Below, piece by piece: positions 32,549-49,131 of a stretch of DNA of 64,000 nucleotides (position 1 is its first letter; every line of letters begins with the position of its first letter). The stretch is from Candidatus Diapherotrites archaeon ADurb.Bin253. Lineage in GTDB: Archaea > Nanobdellota > Nanobdellia > Pacearchaeales > GW2011-AR1. The position numbers were made by a program, and so were the translations under genes. The stretch lies in contig MWBV01000001.1 in NCBI GenBank assembly GCA_002069705.1, positions 21,768 through 85,767 of the forward strand. The letters run 5' to 3'. The notes below the pieces were generated by a model that was given only the letters and a program-made list of their open reading frames with translations, was not told where the DNA came from and ran no database searches.

Positions 32549-32752
32549 ATGCCTAAAAAAGACCTAAATGATACTAAATACAAAAGCGCTACTGTTAAAG
32601 GAACTATCCCATTTAATCAAAAAGAGGCAATAAGAAAATTGATTGGAGTCATAGGTAGCAATGAACAAGATGTGGTTGGAAAAATAATAACTCTCTGGTT
32701 ATATAATGAAGGGTATCTAACAAATAAAAATAAAAAAGGAGAGTCAAAATGA
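32549..32752 (+). CDS. Small hypothetical protein
   Basis: 67-aa ORF ending 4 nt into the next gene. No recognisable motifs. Confidence 0.25.
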   Translation: MPKKDLNDTKYKSATVKGTIPFNQKEAIRKLIGVIGSNEQDVVGKIITLWLYNEGYLTNKNKKGESK

Positions 32753-35700
32753 AAGGCAAGATATTTCTGATATTTTTGGTATTCTCTTTATTGATTATGT
32801 CTCCAATTACTATTGGAGCAGATGGAGAGATTAACAATCCAGAAGATAATCCAAATTCTGAATTAAATGAAGATAATAATAATAAAAATCAAGAAAACAC
32901 TGAAACAACAAATGCAAATAGTTCTTCTGAAGATTTAAACAAAGTTATAGATGAAGTACAAAAACAAAATATAAACGATGATGAAAATAATGAAAGTAAT
33001 TCTGATAAACAAGATATAAACGATAATGAAAATAATGAAAGTAATTCTGATAAACAAGATATGGAAGATGGTTCTAATGAATCTAATTCAACAGAGATAG
33101 AATTGGAGAATTTATCTTCACAAGAAAATTCTGTATATATTTCTTCGAATAATATCTCACCTCCTGAAGAACCCAAAGAGGAACAACCTGCTGCATTGCT
33201 TGTTGAATCTTCAAAAGAAGAGAATTCTGGTCCTTGTTGGGGATATGATGCTCTTGGGAAAAAGGTGATAAAGATAGAAGACTGTGAGGAGGGAGATATA
33301 GAAAAAATTAAACCACTAGAAGAGCTTGAGATAAGTGAATTTGAAAAAGAGGTGATTGTCTCAAGTAAAGAAGATTTCAATAAACCAATTAGAGTTTATA
33401 GTATTTTAACAAAAGAAGCAAATAAAGAAGAAATAAAGATATTCTGGAAAAACGAAAACAACTTAGAGATAACTCAAGATGAATCTTTTTCTGTTGAATA
33501 CTATGATAAAAATGAAAATGGATTAATAGATAAGGTTTCTTGGATAGTCCCACACTTAAGTGAGCAAAAATTTAAGATAATAGTTGAAATTGAAAATCCT
33601 AAAGAATCTACAGAAGAACTTTTACTAAATGTTACTGGACCTTCTGGACAAACCAGGAATCCGATAAATTTCAATATAGAAGTTAATTATTCTGGAAATT
33701 TTAATTGTAATCTCAAAATCGGAAATGAAGAAGCTCTTGCTTTTTCTTCTAACAAAAATTATAGTTTAGACCTTCGAGATGGAGATTATAATTGGGAAGT
33801 TATCTGTTATGATAGTGTTGATGGAACAAATTCGTCAATTACCAATGCCACATTTGGTGACTTTTCTGTTAATGAAGGTGTTTATTATACTAACTTAACT
33901 GAAGGAAAATTATATTTTTTGGATTTAATACAAAACAAAATACAAAACCCTGAAACAATAACAATTAATTCGACAAACCCTTCTAACTACACTATTAAAA
34001 TAAAAAGAAATGAACAAGAAATTTATACAAAGGAATCGTTTAATAATACAAACATTCTGATGAATGAATTAATACTAAGTTCTGCTGGAAATTATACTTT
34101 AAGTGTTAAATTTAAAGAACCTTCTCCAGAATATGAAATTCTTAAGAACTTTTATGTAGCAAGTGCAAATATAACTTTAAATGCAACTTCTGTTGAAGAA
34201 GGTAAACCTGTTAAGATAACTGCTATAGGTAACTCTCAAGATAAAGCCATTTCTACTATAATAATTGATTATGGAGATGGAACTAGTGATTATAATCATA
34301 TAAATGCAAATTCTTTTTCAAAAGAGTTTGTTAAAACATACAACAAAAACGGAAATTACAATATAAAATTATTTATAACAATTCCTGGAGAAGATACATT
34401 TAATATTATCAAAAATGGATTAGTTGTTACAAAACCTACAACACCTACAACCCCAAAAGATGAGAAATCTCCAGAAATTGAATTATTATATCCTGAAGAT
34501 AAAGAGATATTTGAAGTAAATCATGTAAACTTTTCATATAAAGCTAGTGATGATGTTAAAATACAAAATTGTACATTTAAATTATATGAAAATTGTGCTT
34601 CTATGACTACTTGTTCTACAAGTGAATCTAATTTATTGTACCAATCATTCGCAGATGCAAATAACTTTTCTGGTCAAAAAAATAAAGAAATTAGAGTAAA
34701 TTTAAATAAATTTAATGATGGAATTCATTTATGGGAAGTAGAATGTTATGATAATTCTTCAAATAATGCTTGGGAAAGGGGTTTTTTAAAGATTAAAGTA
34801 AATGAAAGTCAAACATCAACTACTCAAAATTATTCTCAAAAAGCAGAAATAGATAGGCTAAAAGAAATTGCAGATCACTTTATTACAAAAAGTTTCAGCT
34901 TAGAAGAAAAAGAGGTTTTAGAAGACCTTATACTCCTTGAAGATACAAAGTATTACAAAAAAAGGCTCTTAGATATTGAAAATTTCTTTAGGGAGAATTA
35001 CAAATATGTTTCAAGTGAAGAATTAAGAAACAAAAAAACAGAGGAATACTTAACTGAATTAAATGAAATAAAAAACAAGATACCTAAAGAAATATCTATT
35101 AAAGAAAACTATGAATATGTTAAGAACAGTGTAGAAACAGATTTTGAAGATGTTATAAAAAGCTATTTTGACTCAACAAATACTCAAATCAGTAAATCTT
35201 CTCTTAAAAAATTAGCAACTATAAATAGAGAATTACAAAATGACATATCTATATCTACAAAAGTTAGGAAAGTGGAGATAGAGTATAATAATGGTACACA
35301 GGAGATAATATTAGTAAAGAAAAAAATTGATTTAAATGATGATTCCCATGAAAGAATATTAGAAATAATCCCTAAAGAAGTCCTAGAAAATAGTGATGAT
35401 GTTTTTTTCTTGGTTGATAGCAAAGTGATTCAAAAAGACCCTATTTTTGAAATAGATTACGATGACTTGGAAAAAGGAGAAATTTTATATTACTTAACTA
35501 AAAAAATAAAGATAAAGGATATAGAAAAAACAGAAACAATACTTTTTGAAGATAATTTAAATAAATTTGAAAGGGGGGTCACAGGACTGTTTATTCTTGA
35601 ATTTGCTTCAATAGATAATACAATTTATTTTGTGCTTATTTTTGTTTTGTTAGTTGTTTTAATCTCTATGGTATTTTTTGTGATTAAAAAATTCAAGATG

Positions 35701-36054
35701 ATTGGTTGGAAAAAAGAACCCAATGTTGTTAGGGTGCTAAATTTAATTGAAGATGTAAAAAGAGCACTTAAAGAAAAGGACATAGAGAGAGCAAGGGAGA
35801 AATATTATAAGATAAAGGAAATATATCCTGTATTGCCTTCAAAAACTAAACCCTATTTTTATGAAAAAATAAAAGAAATGTTGATTAGGATAGATAGAAA
35901 AGATATTTTTGGGTTAGTTAAAGAATATCAAGAAGCAAAAAGAAAATGGAATAAAGAAGAGGTTCTTAGATTGTACGAAGATATTAGAAAAATCTATGAA
36001 AGATTACCTGAAAAAGACAGGAAAAAAGTATATGGTATAATTAATGGATACTAA
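32749..36054 (+). CDS. Giant (1101-aa) surface protein with an acidic tandem repeat, a domain shared with the other giant surface proteins, C-terminal TM and a conserved cytoplasmic tail
   Basis: Signal peptide; 45-nt tandem repeat at 32971..33060 encoding INDDENNESNSDKQD twice. Domain IKIFWKNENNLEITQDESFSVEYYDKNENGLIDKVSWIVPHLSEQKFKIIV matches 15887..21349. TM IYFVLIFVLLVVLISMVFFVI; tail ...AREKYYKIKEIYPVLPSK... Confidence 0.65.
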   Translation: MKGKIFLIFLVFSLLIMSPITIGADGEINNPEDNPNSELNEDNNNKNQENTETTNANSSSEDLNKVIDEVQKQNINDDENNESNSDKQDINDNENNESNSDKQDMEDGSNESNSTEIELENLSSQENSVYISSNNISPPEEPKEEQPAALLVESSKEENSGPCWGYDALGKKVIKIEDCEEGDIEKIKPLEELEISEFEKEVIVSSKEDFNKPIRVYSILTKEANKEEIKIFWKNENNLEITQDESFSVEYYDKNENGLIDKVSWIVPHLSEQKFKIIVEIENPKESTEELLLNVTGPSGQTRNPINFNIEVNYSGNFNCNLKIGNEEALAFSSNKNYSLDLRDGDYNWEVICYDSVDGTNSSITNATFGDFSVNEGVYYTNLTEGKLYFLDLIQNKIQNPETITINSTNPSNYTIKIKRNEQEIYTKESFNNTNILMNELILSSAGNYTLSVKFKEPSPEYEILKNFYVASANITLNATSVEEGKPVKITAIGNSQDKAISTIIIDYGDGTSDYNHINANSFSKEFVKTYNKNGNYNIKLFITIPGEDTFNIIKNGLVVTKPTTPTTPKDEKSPEIELLYPEDKEIFEVNHVNFSYKASDDVKIQNCTFKLYENCASMTTCSTSESNLLYQSFADANNFSGQKNKEIRVNLNKFNDGIHLWEVECYDNSSNNAWERGFLKIKVNESQTSTTQNYSQKAEIDRLKEIADHFITKSFSLEEKEVLEDLILLEDTKYYKKRLLDIENFFRENYKYVSSEELRNKKTEEYLTELNEIKNKIPKEISIKENYEYVKNSVETDFEDVIKSYFDSTNTQISKSSLKKLATINRELQNDISISTKVRKVEIEYNNGTQEIILVKKKIDLNDDSHERILEIIPKEVLENSDDVFFLVDSKVIQKDPIFEIDYDDLEKGEILYYLTKKIKIKDIEKTETILFEDNLNKFERGVTGLFILEFASIDNTIYFVLIFVLLVVLISMVFFVIKKFKMIGWKKEPNVVRVLNLIEDVKRALKEKDIERAREKYYKIKEIYPVLPSKTKPYFYEKIKEMLIRIDRKDIFGLVKEYQEAKRKWNKEEVLRLYEDIRKIYERLPEKDRKKVYGIINGY

Positions 36055-38291: not shown

Positions 38292-38927
38292 ATGTTTGGA
38301 TGGTTTTCTTGGAAAAAAGAAAGTAAAAAGATAAGAGATGATACAAAGACAGGATTTGAGTTTGTTAAAAAAGATATCTCATCTCTAACTGGCTGGATTA
38401 AACACCTTGATTCTGAAAAAAATATTCAAAAAAGAGATATAGATCAGATAAAGTATGATTTAGCGTCTATAAAAAATGAAATTGAATCTATAAAAAATGT
38501 TATTTCGATTATGAACAATTTAAAGCCGAAGCAGGTGTTTAAAACAAACAGGGGGCTGTTGGATAAACAAACACCTGTTTATGCTGTTCAAACAGGTGTT
38601 CAAACAGGTGTTCAAACACCAAATTTAGACCAATTTTCTGTTACAGAAAGAGCAATATTATGGATTCTATTAAACGCGGATATGAAGTTAGGATATGATG
38701 ATTTATCTACAATATTAGGAAAGGAAAAAAGCACTATAAGAGGGCAGATAAATGCTATTAAGTCAAAAAGTGAGGGATTGATAGAAGAGAGTATTGAGAA
38801 AAATGGTAAGAAAAGAGTGTTTATATCTGAAGAAATAAAGGAAAAAATGCTAAAAAAGTCAAAAGTGAGAGTTGGAGGATCTAAAAATATGAAGAAATAT
38901 GAGAAAAATGAAGAAAAAAACACTTAA
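38292..38927 (+). CDS. Coiled-coil protein with QTG-repeat linker and C-terminal winged-HTH domain (putative DNA-binding regulator)
   Basis: 211 aa. N-terminal coiled coil, the linker VQTGVQTGVQT encoded by gttcaaacaggtgttcaaacaggtgttcaaaca, then HTH-like FSVTERAILWILLNADMKLGYDDLSTILGKEKSTIRGQINAIKSK. Confidence 0.5.
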   Translation: MFGWFSWKKESKKIRDDTKTGFEFVKKDISSLTGWIKHLDSEKNIQKRDIDQIKYDLASIKNEIESIKNVISIMNNLKPKQVFKTNRGLLDKQTPVYAVQTGVQTGVQTPNLDQFSVTERAILWILLNADMKLGYDDLSTILGKEKSTIRGQINAIKSKSEGLIEESIEKNGKKRVFISEEIKEKMLKKSKVRVGGSKNMKKYEKNEEKNT

Positions 38928-39151
38928 AAAACCGAAAAGTGAGAGTTAGGATATTAAAAAATTAAATAAAAAAGATATAAAAGAGGCTAAAGTGAGAGAA
39001 AATTTAAATAAAAATTAAAAAAAGGAGGAAAAATAAATAATAAAAAGAGTTGAATCAAAAAAAGGAAGGCGGAAAAGCCTAAAATGAGGCTTAATTTAGG
39101 GGAAAAGGAACAGAGAAAGAGAAGATTAAAGTTATTCTCTTTACCGAATAA

Positions 39152-40012
39152 TTATAATTCTCTTAATTTAAAAATTGTTGGAAGAGTAGCTATCTTTTTA
39201 AGATTAGGAGAGATAGAAAGGCGAATTGATTTGTTGTTTATTTTAGTTTTTTCGACGGGAATTCCTTTTTTTATTAATCTCCCTATGTAATCTCTAATTG
39301 AACTTTCTGTCAAACCTAATTTTATTGAAAGGTTCTTATAATCTGTATATCCATTTTCTTCAGAAAGCTGATAAATTGTTGAAAAAACTGAAAATTCTTG
39401 GTCTGTTAATCTCTTAAATTTTAATCTAACTTCTTTCTTCAAATTATCCAAAGAATCTAGTATTTTTGTAGCATCTCCTATATAATCTTCTGATAATTTA
39501 CTTATATGTATTTCTTCTGGATTATACGAACTTTTATCTGTCTGTTGGTTTGTCTGTTGGTTTGTCTGTCTGTCTGTTGGAACCCCTCTATTTCCTGTGG
39601 AAAGTATGGTATTTTCACCCTTTAAGGCGTTATAAGGGGGTTTTTGTGTTGGATATGTTGGATAACTAAAAGTATCTGTTGGAATATTTTGTCTTTGTGC
39701 TGGATGTGCTGGATATGCTGGATTGGCCCTATGAAACATAAAACACATTGGAAAGTTGGTATTATTGGTATTGAATGGGCATGAATAGGAAATGTTATTT
39801 TGAAGGGGTTCTTTTTTTTGGGAAATTGTTTCGTTTAAAAATTCTTTTCTTAGCAAGTCTTCATTTTTTTTATTGATTGTTTTAAGAACATCACATATTT
39901 CTATTAATCTTTGACGAATTTCATTCAATTCTTCGCTTAAAGAAGATGCTTCTTTCTTGAGAATGTTTATGTCTTGCTTAACTTTAGAAAAAGCCTCTTT
40001 TACGTGTTCCAT
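39152..40012 (-). CDS. Coiled-coil protein with QTN-repeat linker and C-terminal winged-HTH domain; architectural paralog of 38292..38927
   Basis: 286 aa. N-terminal coiled coil, P/Y-rich region, RQTNQQTNQQTD linker, then HTH-like LTDQEFSVFSTIYQLSEENGYTDYKNLSIKLGLTESSIRDYIGRLIKKG. An ORB-like element is embedded at 39583..39604. Confidence 0.5.
   Translation of the reverse strand: MEHVKEAFSKVKQDINILKKEASSLSEELNEIRQRLIEICDVLKTINKKNEDLLRKEFLNETISQKKEPLQNNISYSCPFNTNNTNFPMCFMFHRANPAYPAHPAQRQNIPTDTFSYPTYPTQKPPYNALKGENTILSTGNRGVPTDRQTNQQTNQQTDKSSYNPEEIHISKLSEDYIGDATKILDSLDNLKKEVRLKFKRLTDQEFSVFSTIYQLSEENGYTDYKNLSIKLGLTESSIRDYIGRLIKKGIPVEKTKINNKSIRLSISPNLKKIATLPTIFKLREL
39583..39604 (-). promoter_or_regulatory. 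ORB-like origin recognition box (inverted copy)
   Basis: cccctctatttcctgtggaaag is the reverse complement of CTTTCCACAGGAAATAGAGGGG, matching the two copies upstream of orc1. Confidence 0.45.
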
Positions 40013-40087
40013 TTTTCTGCAAACAATCAGAACTATAAAAAGATTAAGATTAATAAAAATATATTAATTTAAAATATATTCTGTATT

Positions 40088-40354
40088 TTATTGTCTTTGT
40101 TTATATATTAGATATGCTTTCTCACTAAGTTTCCACCTGCTTCTTTTAAGATAATCTTTACCCTGAGGGTTTTTAGTTATTTCTACAACAAATCCTTTCT
40201 TTTTTAAATCCTTTAAGAGCTTTTTAACAAATTCTTCATCCCTTGCTATTTCTTTTGCTATATGGAATGTAAAAATAGGTTTAGGATTGACAATGTAAAG
40301 ATAAGCCAATATTTGCTCTGAAATTTTCTCTTTTTTTTCTTTTGAAATATACAT
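40088..40354 (-). CDS. Small winged-helix DNA-binding protein
   Basis: 88 aa. ISEQILAYLYIVNPKPIFTFHIAKEIARDEEFVKKLLKDLKKKGFVVEI is a typical wHTH layout. Confidence 0.4.
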   Translation of the reverse strand: MYISKEKKEKISEQILAYLYIVNPKPIFTFHIAKEIARDEEFVKKLLKDLKKKGFVVEITKNPQGKDYLKRSRWKLSEKAYLIYKQRQ

Positions 40355-40410
40355 TATTAGAGAAAGAAACAGATTGTTTTAAAGTTAACCTAAAAAGAAA
40401 ATAATCACTT

Positions 40411-40815
40411 TCATTTAATCTTAAAAGAAGGAAGGGGAAGATGTGGTGGAAGATTAAGCTCTTCTTCAAATTGTAATGCTTTTAGATTACATTTTCTAAA
40501 AATAGAATTAAATATAATTTCCTTGAATTTTTCTGGTATTTTCTTTTCCTCCCATTTATTTAATATTTCATCGGATTCTGAATGTGAAAGAGAAACTAAA
40601 AGATAGCCAGAAAATTTTAACAGAGCTATGTCTTGCTCGTAATTAAGTTCATATTCAAATTTTATTTTTATTGGCGATTCAGAATCAGTTAATAATGTAG
40701 AAGATGATTTTTGTATCCCTAATATATTTAATTTTGTAGAAATTTTAATATTTTTAAAAGAATCTTCTTTTCTTTCTAAATCGATTTTATAAAAACTTAT
40801 TCCTAATACCTTCAT
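40411..40815 (-). CDS. Hypothetical protein
   Basis: 134-aa ORF. No recognisable motifs. Confidence 0.3.
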   Translation of the reverse strand: MKVLGISFYKIDLERKEDSFKNIKISTKLNILGIQKSSSTLLTDSESPIKIKFEYELNYEQDIALLKFSGYLLVSLSHSESDEILNKWEEKKIPEKFKEIIFNSIFRKCNLKALQFEEELNLPPHLPLPSFKIK

Positions 40816-40893
40816 AAGATAGAAATCAAAGATTTATTTTTAAATATTTGTATTAAAGAGATTTATATAATTTAACTAAATAAATTAAATTAT

Positions 40894-41154
40894 TTAAATT
40901 AAATCTTCTTCAGAAACAATCATAAAATCACCTATAGCAATTATTGCGCTATAAGGAATTAAAAATTCCCCAGAAGAAGTTTTTTCTAAATTCAAATTTC
41001 TTGTATAAGGAGTAGCATCTCTTATTACAATCCCGATTAATTCACCAGATCTTGTTTCAAATGTAATATCTCTAACAAAACCTAGTCTTTTTCCCTCTTT
41101 TGTTACTACCATCTTTCCTACAAGAGCATTGAATGGATTTTTTTCGCTTTGCAT
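40894..41154 (-). CDS. PRC-barrel domain protein
   Basis: 86 aa. LVGKMVVTKEGKRLGFVRDITFETRSGELIGIVI is the PRC-barrel signature. Confidence 0.5.
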   Translation of the reverse strand: MQSEKNPFNALVGKMVVTKEGKRLGFVRDITFETRSGELIGIVIRDATPYTRNLNLEKTSSGEFLIPYSAIIAIGDFMIVSEEDLI

Positions 41155-41289
41155 ATGAGAGATAAAAGTAAATAATTTATAAACTTTTCTGTGAAAATGT
41201 ATAATTGTTAAAAAATCAAAAAAGAGCTAATTTCATATAAGCGAACCCTCCCTCCCCTTTATTTCTTATGGAAATATTTATAAAGAAAT

Positions 41290-41640
41290 ATTTTATATTT
41301 TTTTATTTTTATTTATTTTAAAAAAATATATATAATAAATAATATATAATGGACAATATATAATAAATGAATTGAACAAATTACACAAAATAAGTGAAAT
41401 AAATGAAATAAATAATATGTAATGAATAATAAATAATAAACGAGTTGTACAAAATAGATTAATTACATAAAATAAAATAAACAATATATGATAAATAATA
41501 AACTAATTATATAATATATAAATAAATTAAATAAATTAAATAAATAATATATAATAAACTAGTTATAGTATATATAAATAAGATAAATAAGATAAATATA
41601 CTATCAAATAAGTAAAATTTTCTTAAATATACTTAATTAT
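41290..41640. promoter_or_regulatory. Extremely AT-rich tract with AAATAAAT-type periodic repeats; putative duplex unwinding element of oriC
   Basis: ~350 bp almost devoid of G/C (aaataaattaaataaattaaataaataatatataataaa...), directly upstream of the ORB pair and orc1. Confidence 0.5.
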
Positions 41641-41646
41641 TATATA

Positions 41647-41671
41647 TTTCCACAGGAAATAGAGGCGTTCC
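41647..41671 (+). promoter_or_regulatory. ORB-like origin recognition box 1
   Basis: TTTCCACAGGAAATAGAGGCGTTCC: dyad TTTCC-ACA-GGAAA followed by a G-rich element, resembling the archaeal ORB (GTTCC-AGT-GGAAAC + GGGG). Confidence 0.55.
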
Positions 41672-41743
41672 TCTTTGTTAGTAGTTATAATCTTTTATAT
41701 AATCTTTAATTTTTTTTCATCGATAACTTAAGGAGGAATAAAG

Positions 41744-41770
41744 TTTCCACAGGAAATAGACGTGTGAGTC
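41744..41770 (+). promoter_or_regulatory. ORB-like origin recognition box 2
   Basis: GTTTCCACAGGAAATAGACGTGTGAGTC, same orientation as box 1, 20 bp upstream of the orc1 ATG. Confidence 0.55.
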
Positions 41771-41789
41771 TTAGCTTAAATTAATTAAA

Positions 41790-43004
41790 ATGAAGTTGGA
41801 TATAGATAAGATATTTGATAGCTTTGATAAAAATAATATCTTTAAAGATAAAACTATTTTGCAATCAAATTATTCTCCTAGTGAAATCCCTCATAGAGAA
41901 GAACAGATAAAGCAAATAGCTTCTATTTTAGCTCCTGTTTTAAGAGGTGAAAAAACCAGTAATCTTTTTTTATATGGAAAGACAGGAACAGGGAAAACTC
42001 TTGCAATGAGATTTGTTCAGGAAGAATTGTATAAGAGGGTTAAGAAAGATGCTGATTTTAAACTTAAAATTGAATATTTAAATTGTAAGATGAAGAAAGT
42101 TTCTGATACAGAATATCGGATTTTAGCTGAATTAGTTAAAAAAATGGGGGGAGATGTTCCTTTAACAGGTTTACCAACACAAGCAATTTATAATAAATTT
42201 ATAGAAACAATTGATTCTGAAAAGAATTTGGTTGTACTTATTTTAGATGAAATAGATCAAACTGTTAAGAAAATTTCAAGTGATTTTTTATATAGTCTTG
42301 TTAGATTAAACTCAGAATTATCTAAATCTCAAATATGTCTTGTTGGAATAAGTAATGATTTAAGATTTTTAGAAGAGTTGGACCCTAGAGTTAGAAGTTC
42401 TTTGTCTGAAGAAGAAATTCTTTTTCACCCATATAATGCACTTCAAATACAGGATATTCTTAATCAGAGAGCAGAATTGGCATTTAAAGAAGGGGTTTTA
42501 CAGGAAGGGGTTATCAATAAATGTGCTGCACTGGCAGCAAAAGAACATGGTGATGCAAGGAGAGCATTGGATTTACTAAGAGTAGCAGGAGAATTAGCAG
42601 AAAGAGATAATTCTAAGAAAATTTTATTAAAATATATAGATAATGCTAATGAAAAAATAGAAAAAGATAAAATTTTGGAAACTATTTCTTCTGAACCAAA
42701 GCAATTTCAGTTGGTTTTAGGTTCAATTATTTATCTTTTAGAACACCAAAAAAACGATTTACCTGTTTTTACAGGGGAGGTTTATGATTTTTATCAGCAA
42801 CTTTGTCTTAAAAATAGATTGGAGATTTTAACACAAAGAAGAGTTGGGGAGATTATTCAAGAATTAGATATGTTGGGTATAATTAATGTAAGAGTAATTT
42901 CAAAAGGAAGAGGAGGAAGAATGAGAGAAATAAAGATGGCAATATCTAAAGAAATTACCAACAAAGCTAAAGAAATAATAGAAAACTCTCTTAATTATGT
43001 TTAA
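41790..43004 (+). CDS. orc1: Orc1/Cdc6 replication initiator (AAA+ plus C-terminal winged helix)
   Basis: 404 aa. Walker A LFLYGKTGTGKT, Walker B VLILDEIDQ, sensor regions, C-terminal wHTH. Confidence 0.93.
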   Translation: MKLDIDKIFDSFDKNNIFKDKTILQSNYSPSEIPHREEQIKQIASILAPVLRGEKTSNLFLYGKTGTGKTLAMRFVQEELYKRVKKDADFKLKIEYLNCKMKKVSDTEYRILAELVKKMGGDVPLTGLPTQAIYNKFIETIDSEKNLVVLILDEIDQTVKKISSDFLYSLVRLNSELSKSQICLVGISNDLRFLEELDPRVRSSLSEEEILFHPYNALQIQDILNQRAELAFKEGVLQEGVINKCAALAAKEHGDARRALDLLRVAGELAERDNSKKILLKYIDNANEKIEKDKILETISSEPKQFQLVLGSIIYLLEHQKNDLPVFTGEVYDFYQQLCLKNRLEILTQRRVGEIIQELDMLGIINVRVISKGRGGRMREIKMAISKEITNKAKEIIENSLNYV

Positions 43005-43018
43005 ACTTATATTCAAAA

Positions 43019-44707
43019 ATGGATTCAAAGCAACTTTTGAAGGTTTGTTTAGAGAATGGTTTATTAGTGGATAAAGATGTTTTGAACCTTTTTAATGGAG
43101 CAAAGGATATAAATTCTGTTAAATTAATCATTGATAAACTGAAAAATTATACTCGTCAGAATATCATAACTAAAAACATCTTTTATGAACACAAAGAGAA
43201 AGTAAATGAATTTTTTTATGAATTGCCTCAAAAATCACAAAAAGAATTAGAAAATTTTAAAATTAAATTGGGTCTGAGTATAGAAATTTCAAGAGAGAAA
43301 GAATCTATAGTAGATGAAAAAAATTCCCTTTCAATTAACTCGGTCAAATCAAATTCTTCTTCTAGTTCTTTAGTTTATTCTGATTCTTCAGAATCTTCTG
43401 ATTCTTCTGGAGAGGTTTTAATTTTGTCTTCTTTTCCTGTTGTAAATAAAAAATTAGAGGTTCAGGATTTTGTGTCTTATTTTAGGAGCAGGTTTGTTGA
43501 AATGAGGGGAATTTTGCAATCAAGACCAGAATTAGATAATCCAATTTCTATAAGTAAAATATTTGGTAATAAACAGAAGATATCTATAATTGGGATTGTA
43601 TCAAAAAAGTCTTTTACTAAGAATAGAAATATTATCTTTGATGTCGAAGATACTACTGGGTTAATTAAAATAATAATAAATAAAGATAAAAAAGAGCTGT
43701 ATGAAAAAGCAGAAAATGTTGCATTGGATTCTGTTATTGGATTTAAAGGTTCAGGTAATGAAGAGAGATTTTTTGCAGATGATATAATTTATCCTGATTC
43801 TGCTCTTCCTGAAAGAAAATTTTCTTTAAATGATGAATATGCTGCATTTATTGGAGATTTACATTTTGGAAGTAAAAGATTTATGAGAGATAATTTTATT
43901 AAATTTATAAATTATTTAAATGGAGAATTAGACGAAGATAAAGAAGCAAAAAAGATAAAGTACCTCTTTTTAGTTGGCGATATTGTGACTGGTGTTGGAA
44001 ATTATCCTAATCAAGAGAAAGATTTAGAGATATTAGATTTAGAAGAACAATTTTTTGGATTAGCAGAACTTTTAAGTAAGATAAGAAAAGATGTAAAAAT
44101 AATTATTTCTCCTGGAAATCATGACGGTGTTAGACTTATGGAGCCCCAGCCTTTTTTAGATCAAAAATATTCTTGGCCATTATATGAGATGGAAAATGTT
44201 TTTATTACACCTAATCCTTGTTATGTTAATATTGGGAAAAGAGAAAATTTTTCTGGATTTAATGTTTTAACTTATCATGGTTTTTCTTATCCTTATTATG
44301 CAAATAATATCCCCTCGCTTATTCAAAAGAAAGCAATGAATTGTCCAGAAGAAATTATGAAGTATCTTCTTAAAAATCGACATCTTGCTCCAACTCATGC
44401 TTCTACACAATATTTTCCTTTAGAGAAAGATGGTCTTTTAATAAGAAATATCCCGGATATATTTGTATCTGCTCACACACATAAATGTGGAGTTACATAT
44501 TACAATAATATCTTGGTTGTTTCTGTTTCATGTTGGGAAGAAATGACTCCTTATCAAGAAAAATTTGGAAATATTCCCGATCATTGTAAAGTTCCTATTT
44601 TTAATTTAAAGACAAGAAAAGTTAAAATATTGGATTTTGAAGATAATGAACCTGTTCAAGAAAATAAATTGCCTTCTTTAGAAACAACCAATTCAAATGG
44701 AAATTAA
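43019..44707 (+). CDS. DNA polymerase II (PolD) small subunit DP1, calcineurin-like phosphoesterase/exonuclease
   Basis: 562 aa. OB-fold region, phosphoesterase motifs GDLHFGS, LVGDIV, GNHD, and a SAHTH-like motif. Confidence 0.9.
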   Translation: MDSKQLLKVCLENGLLVDKDVLNLFNGAKDINSVKLIIDKLKNYTRQNIITKNIFYEHKEKVNEFFYELPQKSQKELENFKIKLGLSIEISREKESIVDEKNSLSINSVKSNSSSSSLVYSDSSESSDSSGEVLILSSFPVVNKKLEVQDFVSYFRSRFVEMRGILQSRPELDNPISISKIFGNKQKISIIGIVSKKSFTKNRNIIFDVEDTTGLIKIIINKDKKELYEKAENVALDSVIGFKGSGNEERFFADDIIYPDSALPERKFSLNDEYAAFIGDLHFGSKRFMRDNFIKFINYLNGELDEDKEAKKIKYLFLVGDIVTGVGNYPNQEKDLEILDLEEQFFGLAELLSKIRKDVKIIISPGNHDGVRLMEPQPFLDQKYSWPLYEMENVFITPNPCYVNIGKRENFSGFNVLTYHGFSYPYYANNIPSLIQKKAMNCPEEIMKYLLKNRHLAPTHASTQYFPLEKDGLLIRNIPDIFVSAHTHKCGVTYYNNILVVSVSCWEEMTPYQEKFGNIPDHCKVPIFNLKTRKVKILDFEDNEPVQENKLPSLETTNSNGN

Positions 44708-45665
44708 GGATAGAGTTTATGGAGTTCAGAAGATAGAAGAAAATGTTATTTTAGATTTAATTAATTCTAATTCTCTTAAAAGATTAAAAGATATTTCTCA
44801 ATTAGGGATGCCTGATACTTATCTTTCTTTTCCTGGTTTTTCCAGATATGAACATTCTTTAGGCACCATGATACTTTTGAAAAAGTTAGGTGCAACATTA
44901 GAGGAACAGGTTGCAGGGTTATTACATGATATCTCCCATACTCCTTTTTCTCATGTTATAGATTGGGTTGTTGGAGATCCTACTAAAGAAGATTACCAAG
45001 ATAAAATATTTCAAGAATTTTTAGAAAAATCAGATGCATTTGATATATTGAATCAACATGGATTAAATCCTTATTTTATTTCAGATTTAAATAATTTTAA
45101 ACTTCTAGAGAGAGATGCTCCAAAACTTTGTGTAGATAGGTTAGATTATTCTTTACGTCAATTAAGGATAGAAAAAGGTAAAGAATTAACAGATAAAATA
45201 TTAAATGATTTATGTGTTTATGATAATCAAATTATGTTTAAGAATTTTAAGCCAGCGAAATTGTTTGGAGATTCATATATGGGACTTCAAAAATCTAGTT
45301 GGGCTGGAGACGAAATGCGAAGCAGGTATCATATCTTATCTGAAACTTTGAAAGAGGCTTTAAACAAAAATCTAATTGATTTTAGTTTTTTTAATGGAAC
45401 TGAAAAACCTATTTTAGAAATTTTAAATAATTCAAATAATGAATTTATCTTACTTAATTTAAGTATGTTAAAGAATGGCTTTTCTGTTATTGAAGATAAT
45501 GAAGGTATAGAATTAAAAAAGAAATTTAGATATGTTGACCCTGAAATTAAAGTTAATGGAGGTTTTGTTTGTTTAAGTGAAATTTGTAAGGATTATAAAA
45601 AAACAGTAGAATATGAAAAAGAAAGAAATAAGGAGGTTAAGAAAGTAAAAATAATTCCAGTTTAA
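44697..45665 (+). CDS. HD-domain metal-dependent phosphohydrolase
   Basis: 322 aa. YEHSLGTMILL...LLHDISHTPFSH has the H...HD...H arrangement. Overlaps DP1 by 11 nt and ends 1 nt before DP2. Confidence 0.6.
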   Translation: MEIKDRVYGVQKIEENVILDLINSNSLKRLKDISQLGMPDTYLSFPGFSRYEHSLGTMILLKKLGATLEEQVAGLLHDISHTPFSHVIDWVVGDPTKEDYQDKIFQEFLEKSDAFDILNQHGLNPYFISDLNNFKLLERDAPKLCVDRLDYSLRQLRIEKGKELTDKILNDLCVYDNQIMFKNFKPAKLFGDSYMGLQKSSWAGDEMRSRYHILSETLKEALNKNLIDFSFFNGTEKPILEILNNSNNEFILLNLSMLKNGFSVIEDNEGIELKKKFRYVDPEIKVNGGFVCLSEICKDYKKTVEYEKERNKEVKKVKIIPV

Positions 45666-45666
45666 A

Positions 45667-48600
45667 ATGGATACTAAAATTTATTTTGAAAATTTGAAAA
45701 AAGAAGTGGATAAAATTTATTCTGTTGCTAATTTAGCTCGTTCTAAAGGTTATGATCCTGTTCATGAAGTTGAAATTCCTTTAGCTATGAGTATGGCTGA
45801 AAAGGTAGTTGGATTAATATCTACAATTTATCCTCAAATGAAGGGAGCAGGTATTGCAGAAAGGATTTTAGAGTTAGAAAAGGAGCACGGTAAACTAGAT
45901 GTGACTATTTTATTTAAAATTGCAGAGGAAGTAGCTAAACAAAAATTCTGCAAATTTGAAAATTTATTACAAGCTATGGATGCCGGAATAAGGATAGCAT
46001 TTGCTTATACTACATTAGGAGTGGTTTCAAGTCCCATAGAAGGATTTACAGGATTAAAAATAAGAAAAACTCGTGACGGAAAAGAGTACATTGAAGCGAG
46101 TTTTTCTGGCCCGATTAGAAGTGCTGGAACTACTGCGAGTTGTGTTATTTTGATTGTTATAGATTATTTAAGAGAAATTTTTGGTTTTGCAAAATATGAT
46201 CCTACGCCAGATGAAATAAAAAGAGTTTATGCTGAATTGGAGCATTTTCACGATAGGGTGACTAATTTACAGTATATGCCAACTGAAGAAGAAGCACTTT
46301 TTTTAGCAGAACATCTTCCCATACAAATTGCAGGAGATGCTTCTGAAACAATTGAAGTTCCAAACTATAAAAATTTAGAAAGAGTGGACACAAATTATCT
46401 GAGAAGTGGTTTTTGTCTTATTATTGGAGAAGGGCTTGCTCAAAAAGCAGCAAAAGGATTTAGATTGCTTGGCAGGGCAAAAAAAAATGGGATACAATCT
46501 ACTGGTTTTGATTTTTTAGAGGAATATGTTAAGATACATGAAAAAAGAGATAGGGGAAAAGCAGATGGTTCTCCTACATATATTAAAGATTTGGTTGCTG
46601 GAAGGCCTATTTTTGGACATCCTTCAAAATCTGGAGGATTTAGATTTAGATATGGGAGAGGAAGAGTATCTGGTTTTAGTGCAACTTCTTTAAATCCTGC
46701 AACTATGGCTGTAACAGACGGTTTTATTGCAATTGGAACACAGCTTAAGATAGAAAAACCCACAAAAGGTTGCGCAGTTACTGTGTGTGATAGTATTGAT
46801 GGCCCTATTGTAAAATTATTCAATGGGAGTGTGAAGAAATTATCTTCTATAGAAGAAACAAAATCTATTTATCCAGACATAGATGAGATTATTTATCTTG
46901 GAGATATTCTTTTTCCTTTTAGTGACTTAGCAAACAGGAATGCTAATCTTATTAAGCCAGGATATGTTGAAGAATGGTGGCATTTGGAATTAATTGAAAA
47001 AGAAAATTCTTTGAAGAATATTAATCCTTTTTCTGTTTCTTTTGATGATGCTATTGAATTAAGTGAAAAATATTCTCTACCTCTTCATCCTAAATATATT
47101 TTTTATTGGACTCAAATTTCAAGAGAAAATCTATTAGATTTACTTATTTGGTTGGAAAATGCAAGAATTGAAAAGAAAATAATTTTACCTTATAACAAAT
47201 CTGAAAGAGAAAAATTTTCATTAGGAAAGAGAGCATTGGAGATTTTGGGTGTTGAACACCAAGTCACTGTAGAAAATGTTGTTTTAACAGAAGAGACAAG
47301 TAGAGCTCTTTTATTTAACCTAGGTTTTGAATTAAATAAAGTTGATGGAAATAAAATTAATTTTAAGGAAATTTTTGACTTTTATAATTTAAATAAAGAT
47401 AAATCTGTTTTGGAGATTGTTAATTCTTTTTCTAAATATTTAATTAAAGATAAAGCAGGGGAATTTATTGGGGCGCGTATGGGTAGACCAGAAAAAGCTA
47501 AACTAAGAAAACTTGTTGGAAGTCCGAATGTTTTATTTCCTGTTGGGAAAGAAGGAGGAAGGTTGAGGAGTTTACAAGCAGCTTGTAAAGAAGGAAAAGT
47601 TTGGGGGAGCTTTCCTATTTATTATTGTGATTCATGTCAAAAAGAAACAATCTATCCAACTTGTGAAGAATGTAATTTAATTACTAAGCCGATGTATTAT
47701 TTTATGGAAACAAAAGAAAAACTTTTTAGTAAATCTAATGAAAATTCTTCTAGAGAAGGAGTAAGATATTGTAATAAATCAATAGATATAAATCATTATT
47801 ATGAACACGCATTAAAAAGATTGGGAGTATCTAAGGAAGAAGCTCCTCTTTTGATTAAAGGAGTTAGAGGCACTTCTTCTGCAAATCATGCTGTAGAGGA
47901 TTTATCTAAGGGAATTTTAAGAGCAAAATATGATTTACAAGTAAATAAGGACGGAACTATTCGTTTTGATGCAACAGAATTACCTTTACTTTACTTTAAA
48001 CCTAAAGAGGCTTATGTGAGTGTAAAAAAACTTCGTGAAATAGGTTATCATAAAGATATTTTTGGAGAAGAATTGGAAAGAGAAGACCAAATTTTGGAAT
48101 TAATGCCCCATGATATTTTATTACCTAGTTCCTTTGACTCTTTAGACGAAAGAGCAGATGATGTTTTTTTTAAGGTTTCTCGTTTTGTCGACGAGGAGTT
48201 GGAAAAGGTTTATGGACTTGAAAAAATTTATAATGTCCAAAATAAAGAAGATTTAATTGGTAAATTGGGTGTTTGTATGGCTCCTCATAATTGTGCAGGG
48301 GTTATTTGTAGGTTTGTAGGATTTTCAAATACACAGGGTTTATTTGCTAGTCCATATATGCATGCTGCTGTAAGAAGAGATTGTGATGGAGATGAAGCAG
48401 CAATTATGCTTCTTGGAGATGTTTTACTTAATTTTTCAAGAGAGTTTTTACCAAGTCATAGAGGAGGAACACAAGATGCTCCCCTTGTTTTAAATGCAAA
48501 AATAGATGCTGGAGAGGTGGATGATCAAATATTGGATTTTGAATTTTTAATGAATTATCCTCTTGATTTATATCGTGCTGCTGAAAAAGGAGTTCATTCT

Positions 48601-49131
48601 TCAGAAGTTAAAGTAAATACTGTACGAGAGATTTTAAAAAAAGGAGAGAATCCTTTTTTGAGAGCAGGTTTTACACATGATACAGATAATTTCAATGAAG
48701 GGATTTTGTGCTCTTCATATAAACGTTTATTGACAATGAAAGATAAGGTGAATCATCAAATGAATTTGGTCGAGAAGTTGAGGTCAGTGGATACTTCAGA
48801 TACTGCAAGATTAATTATAGATAGACATTTTATAAGAGATATGAGAGGTAATCTCAGAAAATTTTCTATGCAAGAATTTAGGTGTGTTGGATGTAATGAA
48901 ATTTTAAGAAGAGTTCCCCTAAACGGGGTTTGTCCTTTTTGTAGAGGCAAACTTATTTTTACAATTCATGAGGGAGGAATAAAGAAATACTTAGAACCTG
49001 CCTTGGATTTGGCTAAAAAATATAATCTTTCTAATTATATGCAACAGAATTTAGAACTTGTAAAAAGATATGTTGAGAGTATTTTTGGGAGAGAATTAGA
49101 AAAACAAGAGAACATAAGCAAATGGTTTTAA
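45667..49131 (+). CDS. DNA polymerase II (PolD) large catalytic subunit DP2
   Basis: 1154 aa. Conserved DP2 segments including Cys clusters (CDSCQKETIYPTCEEC; CVGCNE...CPFCRG) and the catalytic region ...CDGDEAAIM... Confidence 0.93.
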   Translation: MDTKIYFENLKKEVDKIYSVANLARSKGYDPVHEVEIPLAMSMAEKVVGLISTIYPQMKGAGIAERILELEKEHGKLDVTILFKIAEEVAKQKFCKFENLLQAMDAGIRIAFAYTTLGVVSSPIEGFTGLKIRKTRDGKEYIEASFSGPIRSAGTTASCVILIVIDYLREIFGFAKYDPTPDEIKRVYAELEHFHDRVTNLQYMPTEEEALFLAEHLPIQIAGDASETIEVPNYKNLERVDTNYLRSGFCLIIGEGLAQKAAKGFRLLGRAKKNGIQSTGFDFLEEYVKIHEKRDRGKADGSPTYIKDLVAGRPIFGHPSKSGGFRFRYGRGRVSGFSATSLNPATMAVTDGFIAIGTQLKIEKPTKGCAVTVCDSIDGPIVKLFNGSVKKLSSIEETKSIYPDIDEIIYLGDILFPFSDLANRNANLIKPGYVEEWWHLELIEKENSLKNINPFSVSFDDAIELSEKYSLPLHPKYIFYWTQISRENLLDLLIWLENARIEKKIILPYNKSEREKFSLGKRALEILGVEHQVTVENVVLTEETSRALLFNLGFELNKVDGNKINFKEIFDFYNLNKDKSVLEIVNSFSKYLIKDKAGEFIGARMGRPEKAKLRKLVGSPNVLFPVGKEGGRLRSLQAACKEGKVWGSFPIYYCDSCQKETIYPTCEECNLITKPMYYFMETKEKLFSKSNENSSREGVRYCNKSIDINHYYEHALKRLGVSKEEAPLLIKGVRGTSSANHAVEDLSKGILRAKYDLQVNKDGTIRFDATELPLLYFKPKEAYVSVKKLREIGYHKDIFGEELEREDQILELMPHDILLPSSFDSLDERADDVFFKVSRFVDEELEKVYGLEKIYNVQNKEDLIGKLGVCMAPHNCAGVICRFVGFSNTQGLFASPYMHAAVRRDCDGDEAAIMLLGDVLLNFSREFLPSHRGGTQDAPLVLNAKIDAGEVDDQILDFEFLMNYPLDLYRAAEKGVHSSEVKVNTVREILKKGENPFLRAGFTHDTDNFNEGILCSSYKRLLTMKDKVNHQMNLVEKLRSVDTSDTARLIIDRHFIRDMRGNLRKFSMQEFRCVGCNEILRRVPLNGVCPFCRGKLIFTIHEGGIKKYLEPALDLAKKYNLSNYMQQNLELVKRYVESIFGRELEKQENISKWF

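Follow-up and report, generated by a model that had tools for sequence, protein, structure and literature searches.

A probable orc1-adjacent replication origin in a DPANN archaeon, with one origin recognition box inside a neighbouring gene

The stretch of AT-rich DNA lying upstream of orc1 in an uncultured DPANN archaeon with a tiny genome raises the question of whether this is where the chromosome starts to replicate. To judge from its sequence, the locus is very likely an orc1-adjacent chromosomal replication origin of the oriC1 type, belonging to a Pacearchaeota/Woesearchaeota-like lineage. A preliminary description had proposed a probable oriC, and the proposal is upheld: the features that serve as sequence-level criteria for predicting archaeal origins (Wu et al. 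2012, PMC3528665) are found here, and the arrangement is kept in ∼42 related species. The origin is of the ordinary, canonical orc1-adjacent archaeal kind, with the exception that one box is kept within an adjacent protein-coding gene. The analysis rests on the sequence and its statistics, on the orientation and conservation of the elements and on the homology of the initiator, and covers a window of 64 kb, the whole stretch of DNA under study (Table 1).

Table 1. Features of the putative origin and its flanking genes (positions within the 64-kb window)
Feature	Position	Strand	Description
p286, conserved origin-adjacent coiled-coil/wHTH gene	39152..40012	-	Pfam HTH_36, 25.3 bits
(ACAG)n-like tetranucleotide tract	39537..39576	-	directly 3' of ORB-A; TRF period 4 x 10.2 copies
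ORB-A, distal full box	39577..39603	-	TTTCCACAGGAAA-TAGA-GGGG-TTCCAA; exact 19-mer match
p88, small putative wHTH protein	40088..40354	-	Pfam TrmB, 21.3 bits (cut-off 25.6 bits)
p134, conserved cassette protein	40411..40815	-	syntenic in 42 species
PRC-barrel protein gene	40894..41154	-	Pfam PRC, 39.5 bits (cut-off 21.2 bits)
ORB-B, degenerate inverted box	41246..41274	-	TTTCCATAAGAAA-TAAA-GGGGAGGGAGGG; three mismatches to 19-mer
AT-rich tract, putative duplex unwinding element (DUE)	41275..41646	.	372 bp between boxes B and C
ORB-C	41647..41675	+	TTTCCACAGGAAA-TAGA-GGCGTTCCTCTT; exact 19-mer match
Conserved non-coding C-D module	41676..41724	+	TTAGTAGTTATAATC-TTTATATAA, T-run, CATCGAT
ORB-D	41744..41769	+	TTTCCACAGGAAA-TAGA-CGTGTGAGT; one mismatch to 19-mer
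orc1/cdc6 initiator gene, 404 aa	41790..43004	+	Pfam Cdc6_lid, Cdc6_C and AAA domains
PolD operon downstream of orc1	43019..49131	+	Pfam
DP1	43019-44707	+	Pfam
HD-domain protein gene	44697-45665	+	Pfam
DP2	45667-49131	+	Pfam

All three ORB-like boxes reported earlier are present: the 19-mer TTTCCACAGGAAATAGAGG occurs without mismatch at 41647-41665 (+) and 39585-39603 (-), and with a single mismatch at 41744-41762 (+). Another box, ORB-B, had been overlooked; its 19-mer site (41256-41274, -) reads TTTCCATAAGAAATAAAGGGGAGGGAGGG. Sites with up to three mismatches number four in the window against 0.02 expected from shuffles; they span less than 2.2 kb, and the remainder of the 64 kb contains none. 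Across 66 species-level loci, the 3 kb upstream of orc1 have a 42-fold higher density of the dyad than the remaining sequence (84 versus 8 matches). All four boxes, including ORB-B and ORB-C, are invariant in 10 strain contigs, while the tract between them carries indels. The dyad with its G-rich tail agrees with the biochemically defined ORB1/2 of P. furiosus (TTCCAGTGGAAAT...GGGGGG) and also with a haloarchaeal ORB (..GGAAACAGTGGGG..).

The elements are laid out as A<- ... B<- [372 bp, 90.9% AT] C-> D-> orc1, each dyad pointing toward the tract. This tract is the most AT-rich and least stable 300 bp of the window (z=5.5), which has an overall A+T content of 71.5%. The dyad of ORB-B (41262-41274) abuts its left edge, with a strong G-string on the far side, and ORB-C forms the right edge in the inverted orientation; B and C are 84% complementary over 25 nt. 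Their inversion around the window's extreme of AT content and stability counts in favour of an origin, as does the recurrence of the B-tract-C-D architecture in ∼42 species while the length and sequence of the tract vary. The tract had been described as ∼350 bp of 'almost pure A/T': the AT-rich extreme is borne out, but the wording is a slight overstatement, because 34 G/C remain. The bracketing of the tract by boxes likewise holds for ORB-C, paired with the newly found ORB-B, and not for the distal box, which is 2 kb away.

Both the B-tract-C-D layout and the order of the genes around it are common to ∼42 related species whose Orc1 proteins are 58-96% identical. In nearly all of these, the minus strand carries a box that ends in a G-rich tail near the left edge of the tract (class consensus AAAt.TTTCcAta.GAAAt.AagGGGtg.G.G). 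A tract of at least 87.5% AT is found in nearly all related species with a length of 95-282 bp; among strains with identical Orc1 it measures 323-372 bp, and strain variation is concentrated in it. It holds low-complexity repeats, and comparison of related species revealed no conserved internal motif. It is also the point where many MAG contigs end.

On the other side, ORB-C (class consensus TTCCAtaaGAAAt..AGGTGTttttcTT) and ORB-D (TTTCCAtAgGAAAta.AcgTGTgaG) are separated by 96-100 bp in 41/41 loci and by 97-98 bp in 37. Here the distance is 97 bp, and ORB-D ends 21 bp ahead of the orc1 ATG; in relatives it is found at -30 to -135 from the ATG. The module between the two boxes comprises a TATA-like block (41694-41702), conserved across the loci, a T-run (41710-41717) and CATCGAT (41718-41724), with columns invariant or near-invariant in 38 species. 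It is putatively the BRE/TATA promoter and start region of orc1.

Orc1 scores 410 bits with NCBIfam TIGR02928 (cut-off 181 bits). In the PDB it comes closest to S. solfataricus Orc1-1 (2QBY_A, 7e-107), followed by A. pernix ORC1 (2V1U, 3e-91), both ORB-binding initiators. The DNA-contacting segments are conserved, the aligned stretches being 'TGL' in the ISM, 'TQRRV' in the recognition helix and 'GR' in the wing. Pfam confirms the previously noted order orc1/DP1/DP2, with an additional HD-domain gene separating DP1 and DP2; synteny of orc1-DP1-DP2 holds in 63-65 of 66 species, and only 12 have the HD gene. To the left, the small genes had been said to include a wHTH and a PRC-barrel gene. The PRC-barrel assignment passes the Pfam threshold, that of the wHTH (p88) falls below it. 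The PRC-barrel gene is transcribed away from the tract and is syntenic in 44 species (53-94% identity); p88 is part of the conserved origin-flanking cassette (38 species, 50-92% identity), and p134 has no Pfam or NCBIfam match.

ORB-A stands apart from the other three boxes: it is an outlying ORB, strongly conserved, and lies within a gene. The open reading frame said to contain an inverted third box does contain it, and is a real, conserved gene, p286, syntenic in 36 species (2,559 homologues; 852 representative clusters). The protein has a long helix at its N terminus (aa 2-64) and a MarR/ArsR-like winged helix-turn-helix at its C terminus (aa 177-285); the linker between them (aa 65-176) is disordered, and its coding region hosts ORB-A and the (ACAG)n tract. 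An AlphaFold2 model gives pLDDT >90 in both folded parts and <50 in the linker, and the best Foldseek matches are MarR/ArsR/HlyU regulators. With its dyad at 39591-39603 and G-string at 39583-39586, the box codes for S-T-G-N-R-G-V-P and stands in the same reading frame in 35/35 orthologues; its class consensus amounts to 59 bits. The tetranucleotide tract, interrupted here as (CAGA)3 CAAACCAA CAGA CAAACCAA (CAGA)2 and coding for T-D-R-Q/T-N-Q-Q repeats, follows ORB-A in all orthologues over 28-40 nt, (CAGA)7 being recurrent in many species, and is invariant in 13 strain-level contigs. It is the sole (ACAG)>=3 tract of the window; of the 40 such tracts present in 689 kb of related loci, 35 lie behind an ORB dyad and the remaining five are likewise within p286.

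Since ORB-A is translated, the conserved entity might instead be a short linear peptide motif of the linker, S-x-G-N-x-G-V-P-T-D-R-Q-T, its likeness to an ORB being incidental or secondary. Such a motif occurs in 120/120 close homologues and 129/147 cluster representatives, with several residues invariant in the protein alignment, but this explanation is unlikely in view of the nucleotides. Rare synonymous codons are fixed, namely TCC (35/35; background 6%), GGG (35/35; 19%) and GAC (34/35; 17%), and the codon ahead of the box stays NTT even though its amino acid changes among the 35 orthologues, while codons outside the dyad arms (centre and spacer) are free to vary in amino acid. The box is the most conserved nucleotide stretch of p286, with third-position conservation of 0.90 compared with 0.52 gene-wide and 0.64-0.65 in the well-conserved wHTH, and it is identical at 19/19 positions to ORB-C, which is intergenic and thus non-coding. 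To judge by its codons, ORB-A is under constraint as DNA, since synonymous sites too are conserved. The idea that this region, or the C-D module, is a structured non-coding RNA or a 5'-UTR riboregulator instead of protein-binding DNA could appeal to ∼130 nt of high non-coding conservation and to the short hairpins that the dyads allow. It is highly improbable: RNAalifold found no consensus pairs for the C-D module in 38 species, an Rfam search with the limit relaxed to E<=1 gave nothing, covariation is absent from the arms of the dyads, and the same box is found on either side of the tract in opposite orientations.

The strand composition of the window bears on two further explanations. The skew check suggested earlier gives a mixed picture: only an AT-skew step coincides with the locus, and fourfold-site GC skew shows neither a sign switch nor a change point in the 64 kb (+0.18 left, +0.14 right). 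For strand-referenced fourfold AT skew, the top-scoring change point anywhere in the window falls at 41,083 (|z|=4.7; by permutation of gene blocks, p=0.012). It is a step and not a sign flip, and in relatives the step is nearly gone after controlling for gene orientation (L+ -0.128 versus R+ -0.157). The constant GC-skew polarity would suit boxes that are Orc1 operators, solely regulating transcription of orc1 and of the divergent PRC-barrel cassette, with replication starting elsewhere and the tract merely a long AT-rich divergent promoter region. The position of box D between the TATA-like block and the orc1 ATG, and the rigid C-D spacing typical of a regulatory unit, point the same way. 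Regulation alone nevertheless leaves unexplained why nearly all species have an inverted G-string box B exactly at the far edge of a tract of 100-370 bp and ∼90% AT. Here the tract greatly exceeds the other intergenic regions of the window in length and AT content, and in archaea examined by experiment this same arrangement serves as the origin, with which autoregulation coexists (PMC4010727; PMC12141716). An exclusively regulatory role is accordingly quite unlikely. The same unchanging GC skew across 64 kb would also fit an oriC sequence that is genuine but dormant or dispensable, another site or recombination-dependent initiation being mainly used. A canonical origin sequence is no guarantee of use, because Thermococcus kodakarensis, according to the account in PMC5663688, can dispense with both a canonical oriC and Cdc6. 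Against dormancy stand the purifying selection on four boxes and their geometry across species of such divergent Orc1, the coincidence of the AT-skew change point with the locus, and the status of ORC1 as a single-copy core gene in a reduced genome; ORC1 is single-copy phylum-wide and already serves as an origin marker (preprint 10.64898/2026.05.13.725050). Dormancy is therefore very unlikely.

If the locus is an active origin, Orc1 binding, MCM loading, origin firing and orc1 autoregulation may be pictured as follows. Orc1/Cdc6 monomers produced from the adjacent gene would occupy the four boxes, the winged-helix domain contacting the dyad TTCCA-NN-GGAAA and the AAA+ initiator-specific motif the G-rich 3' extension. 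The boxes would act as a divergent 2+2 array with dyads toward the tract. Boxes B and C, which directly flank it, would guide ATP-Orc1-dependent MCM loading between them, following a model in which MCM is loaded between inverted ORBs (PMC12141716), and the intervening DNA would melt, by analogy with Sulfolobus ORB2/ORB3. Box D probably doubles as a site of Orc1 self-repression besides being an origin box, because it follows the TATA-like block and closely precedes the start codon of orc1. Box A would be a conserved outlying Orc1 site, 1.65-3.3 kb off, and might serve in looping to the origin, as a boundary or in control of its host gene.

The oriC1 of Aeropyrum pernix has four ORBs, two on each side of the DUE, and 2V1U is the structure of its Orc1 bound to ORB4. 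The 2+2 arrangement around an AT-rich centre is thus shared, the A. pernix initiator is the second-best structural relative of Orc1 here, and ORB4 (CTCCACAGGAAACGGAGGGGT) presumably shares with box A the CCACAGGAAA dyad half and the 4-nt spacer to GGGG. The Aeropyrum boxes all lie in one compact intergenic origin, whereas the present locus has its outer left box within a gene, kilobases away.

Sulfolobus oriC1 likewise adjoins its orc1-1 gene, whose product is the initiator most similar to the one described here, and, as outlined in PMC12141716, comprises an AT-rich DUE between two inverted ORBs with a further ORB outside (Robinson et al. 2004; Dhanaraju et al. 2025). The proposed Orc1-directed recruitment of MCM to the intervening DNA is borrowed from that system. 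The ORB3-DUE-ORB2 unit is given there as ∼130 bp, compared with a tract of 372 bp here (100-390 bp in relatives) that varies even among strains, and no conserved motif resembling the Sulfolobus ucm was found inside this tract. Haloarchaeal oriC1 has been predicted by the same criteria that hold at this locus, and haloarchaeal ORBs have a terminal G-string, e.g. ..GGAAACAGTGGGGTGGGGGGGT, similar to the tail GGGGAGGGAGGG of box B; haloarchaea differ in possessing many orc/cdc6 genes and multiple origins (PMC3528665), in contrast to the single ORC1 of this lineage.

In Pyrococcus and other Thermococcales (Matsunaga et al. 2007, PMC1904270) the origin is also directly upstream of cdc6/orc1, followed by the PolD genes, and the ORBs combine a TTCCA-N-GGAAAT dyad with a G-string, long inverted ORBs surrounding AT-rich DNA. 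The spacer between dyad and G-string is ∼9 nt there and 4 nt here, and the locus described here lacks a swarm of mini-ORBs. A search for a Pyrococcus-style ORB cluster in dp1 found none. Pyrococcus also has an extra ORB site within the coding sequence of a neighbouring gene, evolutionarily conserved and occupied by Cdc6 in vivo. There it is a cluster in dp1; here one full box stands alone in a wHTH gene across the origin, followed by the (ACAG)n tract.

A preliminary description of this DNA had proposed a replication origin upstream of orc1, marked by three ORB-like boxes. All three are present: the 19-mer TTTCCACAGGAAATAGAGG occurs exactly in boxes A and C and with a single mismatch in box D. 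A fourth site, box B, was missing from that description: on the minus strand it reads TTTCCATAAGAAATAAAGGGGAGGGAGGG, in which a strong G-string comes after a degenerate dyad, and it adjoins the left edge of the AT tract. When up to three mismatches are allowed, four sites are found in the 64-kb window against 0.02 expected from dinucleotide-preserving shuffles, and no further site lies outside this cluster. No other 300 bp of the 64 kb is as AT-rich or as unstable thermodynamically as the AT tract, a putative duplex unwinding element (DUE; z = 5.5); the window average is 71.5% A+T. The tract is bracketed by the inverted boxes B and C and not, as had been supposed, by box A and the downstream pair. 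All four boxes, followed from dyad to G-rich tail, point away from the tract, A and B leftwards and C and D rightwards, and 21 bp separate the end of box D from the orc1 ATG. Archaeal origins are predicted from an intergenic region that adjoins orc/cdc6 and contains inverted ORBs around an AT-rich element (PMC3528665); all of these features are found at this locus. The origin interpretation is supported by orc1 adjacency, by the inverted ORBs around the AT-rich element and by an arrangement that is kept in relatives. From sequence, geometry and deep conservation, the locus is predicted with high confidence to be a canonical orc1-adjacent ORB-type archaeal replication origin. Its variant features are a distal ORB within a coding gene, an (ACAG)n tract attached to that ORB, and a rigid module of box C, putative promoter and box D.

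Features of the predicted origin and its surroundings (window positions)
Feature	Position	Strand	Remarks
Left-flank gene	8567-11965	-	
Left-flank gene	15887-21349	-	
Left-flank gene	28215-30551	-	
Left-flank gene	32749-36054	+	
Five-gene cassette	38292-41154		p211, p286, p88, p134, PRC-barrel gene
p286	39152-40012	-	286 aa; upstream of orc1; contains box A
TrmB-like wHTH gene		-	upstream of orc1; small, sub-threshold
p134		-	upstream of orc1; unknown, 134 aa
PRC-barrel gene		-	upstream of orc1
(ACAG)n tract	39537-39576	-	directly 3' of box A
Box A	39577-39603	-	19-mer at 39585-39603
Box B	41246-41274	-	fourth box at 41256-41274
AT tract	41275-41646		372 bp, 90.9% A+T
Box C	41647-41675	+	19-mer at 41647-41665
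Hairpin in box C tail	41661-41674		
Box D	41744-41769	+	19-mer at 41744-41762
orc1/cdc6	41790-43004	+	404 aa; Pfam; NCBIfam TIGR02928; PDB homology
DP1			downstream of orc1
HD-domain gene	44697-45665	+	between DP1 and DP2; 11-nt overlap with DP1 end
DP2			downstream of the HD-domain gene

The protein encoded beside these boxes scores 410 bits against NCBIfam TIGR02928 (cut-off 181 bits), and its best solved relatives, Orc1-1 of S. solfataricus (2QBY_A, 7e-107) and ORC1 of A. pernix (2V1U, 3e-91), are both ORB-binding initiators. Segments that contact DNA in these initiators are conserved in the alignment: 'TGL' in the initiator-specific motif, 'TQRRV' in the recognition helix and 'GR' in the wing. 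On the DNA side, ORB1 of P. furiosus, studied in Cdc6 gel-shift assays, has the reverse complement TTCCAGTGGAAATGAAACTCTGGGGGG (PMC1904270), and a haloarchaeal ORB contains ..GGAAACAGTGGGGTGGGG.. (PMC3528665). The class consensuses of the present boxes carry 44–59 bits, the highest value belonging to class A, TTCCAnnGGAAAt.aaGGGGtT.C.ACAGACAGA. The dyad and its flanking T are identical to those of the P. furiosus and haloarchaeal ORBs, whereas the G-string follows after a shorter spacer here; the core TTCCA..GGAAA is common to P. furiosus ORB1–3, a haloarchaeal ORB and these boxes. [quoted passage not shown] A point of difference is that the AT tracts of 24 species contain no conserved short motif comparable to the Sulfolobus-type ucm element.

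The literature searched contains no account of ORBs, or of how oriC is built, in this clade. A 2026 preprint rotated 208 complete Nanobdellota genomes to ORC1, reported as a single-copy core gene, and its text nowhere mentions ORB, oriC or skew (10.64898/2026.05.13.725050). For DPANN/Nanobdellota archaea, the location of ORC1 is at present the sole basis on which origins are placed. The cis-architecture predicted here, comprising box consensus, polarity, DUE and rigid C-promoter-D module, would offer a concrete origin model for an uncultured clade, and the predicted origin would give coverage-based growth-rate estimates, and the rotation of genomes, a fixed reference point.

Conservation was followed at two depths. 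An identical Orc1 protein is recorded on contigs of many samples, including the 801,691-bp NCBI contig JAXGNJ010000001.1 (GCA_040768045.1), where orc1 lies near 607.8 kb; the sources assign it to a DPANN archaeon of Diapherotrites/Pacearchaeota type. The organism is abundant in samples such as ERZ772708 (about 32x) and ERZ795063 (about 15x). Boxes A–D are invariant in 10 strain-level contigs; strain variation in the region is concentrated in the AT tract, whose length ranges from 323 to 372 bp among strain-level contigs with identical Orc1. At greater distance, a survey of one genome per species yielded 66 orc1 loci with Orc1 identities of 58–96%. With up to one mismatch, the dyad gives 84 hits in the 3 kb upstream of orc1 and 8 in the remainder of these loci, a 42-fold difference in density, and the gene order p211, p286, p88, p134, PRC, [tract], orc1, DP1, (HD), DP2 is kept wherever the available DNA suffices. 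The layout of box B, tract, box C and box D recurs in about 42 species whose intergenic region is complete: at the left edge of a tract of 95–282 bp with at least 87.5% A+T stands a box on the minus strand that carries a G-rich tail, a plus-strand box occupies the right edge, and a second plus-strand box precedes the ATG. The distal box A is common to 35–37 species. No conserved motif was detected inside the AT tract, as no G/C-containing 7-mer is present in more than 4 of 24 species' tracts and only generic A/T words recur; this is as expected of an unwinding element defined by composition. In this species the tract consists of degenerate AAATAATATATAAT-like units together with a roughly 73-bp repeat.

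Of the 66 MAG contigs that carry orc1 and represent one species each, roughly one in three ends 76–850 bp upstream of the gene (loci L011-L013, L016, L020, L022, L024, L027, L029, L032, L033, L040, L044, L045, L049, L054, L057, L063, L066, L068 and L076). The low-complexity AT tract seems to be a systematic breaking point of MAG assemblies at the predicted origin, whose architecture would explain why contigs so often stop just upstream of orc1.

Raw GC skew in the window tracks gene orientation; fourfold-degenerate sites were therefore referenced to the plus strand, separating gene orientation from strand-wide bias. At these sites GC skew is +0.18 to the left and +0.14 to the right of the tract in both gene orientations, with no sign switch within the 64 kb and no change point in the window (maximum |z| 1.6). 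The value of (A-T)/(A+T) shifts stepwise, being about -0.055 to the left and about -0.19 to the right in both orientations, and the best change point of the whole window falls at 41,083, 192 bp left of the tract edge at 41,275 (|z| = 4.7, p = 0.012 by gene-block permutation). In relatives the AT-skew step is small once orientation is controlled; the right flank there consists almost entirely of plus-strand genes, so that the comparison is confounded. The skew in 64 kb neither refutes nor strongly supports an origin. Separately, the plus strand is richer in G than in C at fourfold sites throughout the window whatever the gene orientation (+0.12 to +0.20 per quarter), and in related species too the sign of GC skew is equal on both flanks, a strand-wide bias without inversion at the predicted origin.

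The spacing between boxes C and D is 96–100 bp in 41 of 41 loci and 97–98 bp in 37 of them. The DNA 3' of box C is almost invariant in relatives, reading AGGTGTTTCTCTT..TTAGTAGTTATAATC.TTTATATAA and then a T-run and CATCGAT/CGTTGA. We infer that this block comprises the BRE/TATA promoter and start region of orc1; box D would then sit in the orc1 leader, where Orc1 could autoregulate. The possibility that the module encodes a structured RNA was discarded, since RNAalifold gave 0 consensus pairs from 38 sequences and no relevant Rfam match was obtained at E<=1, either for the module or for the region as a whole. A sigma-70 promoter scan returned 10 sites against 9.4 expected; built on a bacterial model, it says nothing about an archaeon. 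Within the tail of box C, AGAGGCGTTCCTCT forms a short GC hairpin that leads into a T-rich run, and a scanner calls this terminator-like on both strands; a few close relatives show a comparable AGAG..CTCT pairing. A search of the whole 64-kb window with ARAGORN yielded neither tRNA nor tmRNA genes.

Box A, the most conserved of the four boxes, lies 1.65–3.3 kb (median 2.07 kb) upstream of orc1 in relatives. In 35 of 35 orthologues it falls within p286 in one reading frame, where it encodes S-[TISN]-G-N-x-G-[VA]-[PS]-T-D-[RK]; all 120 close homologues carry this peptide, as do 129 of the 147 listed 50%-identity representatives of the family (88%). The codons chosen are unusual: TCC encodes the Ser throughout, although it makes up 6% of Ser codons in these loci, GGG likewise encodes the second Gly (19%), and 34 of 35 orthologues use GAC for Asp (17% background). 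The codon preceding the Ser is always NTT, the amino acid there varying over seven residues, and codons at the dyad centre and spacer vary freely. Over a stretch of 11 codons, conservation reaches 0.92 for all nucleotides and 0.90 for third positions, compared with 0.60 and 0.52 across the gene and 0.64–0.65 for third positions in the conserved wHTH. Judged from these patterns, the constraint on box A acts on DNA rather than on the peptide. An AlphaFold2 model built from 35 homologues gives two confidently predicted parts, a helix (aa 2-64) and a C-terminal wHTH, joined by a linker (aa 65-176) predicted to be disordered (pLDDT <50); on this model box A would be written into a linker that tolerates it. 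The case would represent a natural example of a coding sequence with a second, DNA-level code in a disordered linker. Within species, the variable dyad centre of box A tracks those of boxes C and D only weakly above permutation (A=D 9 versus 5.3, p = 0.03; A=C not significant), and the idea of such tracking was dropped. A seemingly covarying, GC-clamped palindrome upstream of box A proved to be a real inverted repeat in only about 7 of 35 species and was set aside.

A precedent for an ORB inside a gene exists in Thermococcales, where a conserved Cdc6-bound site lies within the dp1 coding gene beside oriC (PMC1904270). Here the embedded box is found in p286 instead, which would extend the precedent to another gene and lineage. 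A Thermococcales-like ORB cluster in dp1 itself was rejected: on the downstream side of orc1, dyad-like matches are no denser than background (58 in 253 kb), and the sole positionally conserved one is without a G-string. It was also considered whether p286 might be a replication protein of WhiP/Cdt1-, DnaD- or Rep-like type, as weak Pfam hints would have it; its folded domain, the modelled wHTH, matches generic MarR/ArsR regulators only, and the idea was abandoned.

An (ACAG)n-like tract of 28–40 nt, often pure (CAGA)7-9, follows box A in every species; it is interrupted in this species, and (CAGA)7 recurs in many others. In the window the tract after box A is the sole (ACAG)>=3 tract. Related loci totalling 689 kb contain 40 such tracts, of which 35 come after an ORB dyad and the remaining five are likewise inside p286, the repeat being essentially absent elsewhere in 750 kb of sampled DNA. 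A phase-variable contingency locus was weighed as an explanation and rejected for this species: the tract is identical in 13 strain-level contigs, without repeat-number polymorphism, and a single reading frame is kept through it in 35 of 35 orthologues. Given this invariance, its behaviour here is not that of a phase-variation tract. Self-homogenisation of a microsatellite could explain the third-position purity of the repeat but not its fixed position and length. A more ambitious reading, which we consider improbable, is that ORB dyad, G-string and the (ACAG)n tract of about 28–40 nt together form a distinct functional DNA module, making box A more than a spare Orc1 site. In one version, ORB-bound Orc1 would nucleate further protein loading or strand opening on the periodic repeat; in another, origin licensing would be coupled to expression of the wHTH protein that the module interrupts. 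For the first version, the bacterial unit of DnaA-box, GC-spacer and DnaA-trio, which serves unwinding, would be a formal parallel. If either version held, this would be a type of cis-element not described for archaeal origins. At three of the related loci (L051, L052 and L055) a second ORB-like box (CTTCGACAGGAAAt.a.GGGGGTT) occurs just past the repeat.

A 17-mer common to boxes A, C and D was used as the query for a scan across metagenomes. Among the matches listed, triple occurrences are confined to the orc1 locus, and where GGGGTTCCAACAGACA or a near-identical sequence comes after the 17-mer, the match always lies inside a p286 homologue. The other singletons among the matches listed are chance occurrences on unrelated, mostly GC-richer contigs, and the viral-contig matches are likewise unrelated. 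Two recurrent contexts were seen among these matches, cggaTTTCCACAGGAAATAGAggatgccatccagaat on several viral and metagenome contigs of 44–51% GC and atatTTTCCACAGGAAATAGAaaaaagatggcaggaa on contigs of 34–41% GC (metagenome loci L078, L091, L129, L199, L201, L204, L208-L210 and others); they are conserved sequences of other organisms, unconnected with this origin.

Several observations concern the neighbouring genes. The five-gene cassette that includes p286 is syntenic beside the predicted origin across the clade (related loci L014-L075), with three of its five genes lacking a family assignment; the PRC-barrel protein is weakly similar to YlmC/YmxH (27.9 bits, below cut-off). A homologue of the HD-domain gene was detected between DP1 and DP2 in only 12 of 66 related species, indicating a variable insertion in the PolD operon. 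The 36 kb to the left of the cassette mostly encode very large proteins without family matches, together with two HerA/DUF87-type ATPases, one of them fused to CarboxypepD_reg domains, a protein of 1820 aa whose C-terminal domain is tail-fibre gp53-like, and a protein with a PKD domain. This region could specify a surface or secretion apparatus or represent a mobile island. One strain contig (L007, 1-1636) carries, about 9 kb upstream, a phage-type integrase in place of the 632-aa gene found in other strains, and in another (L004, 18782-21215) small RHH-type genes replace the RimK/GTPase genes downstream of TctA. These two contigs differ in flanking content despite identical Orc1, pointing to variable islands on either side of the origin region.
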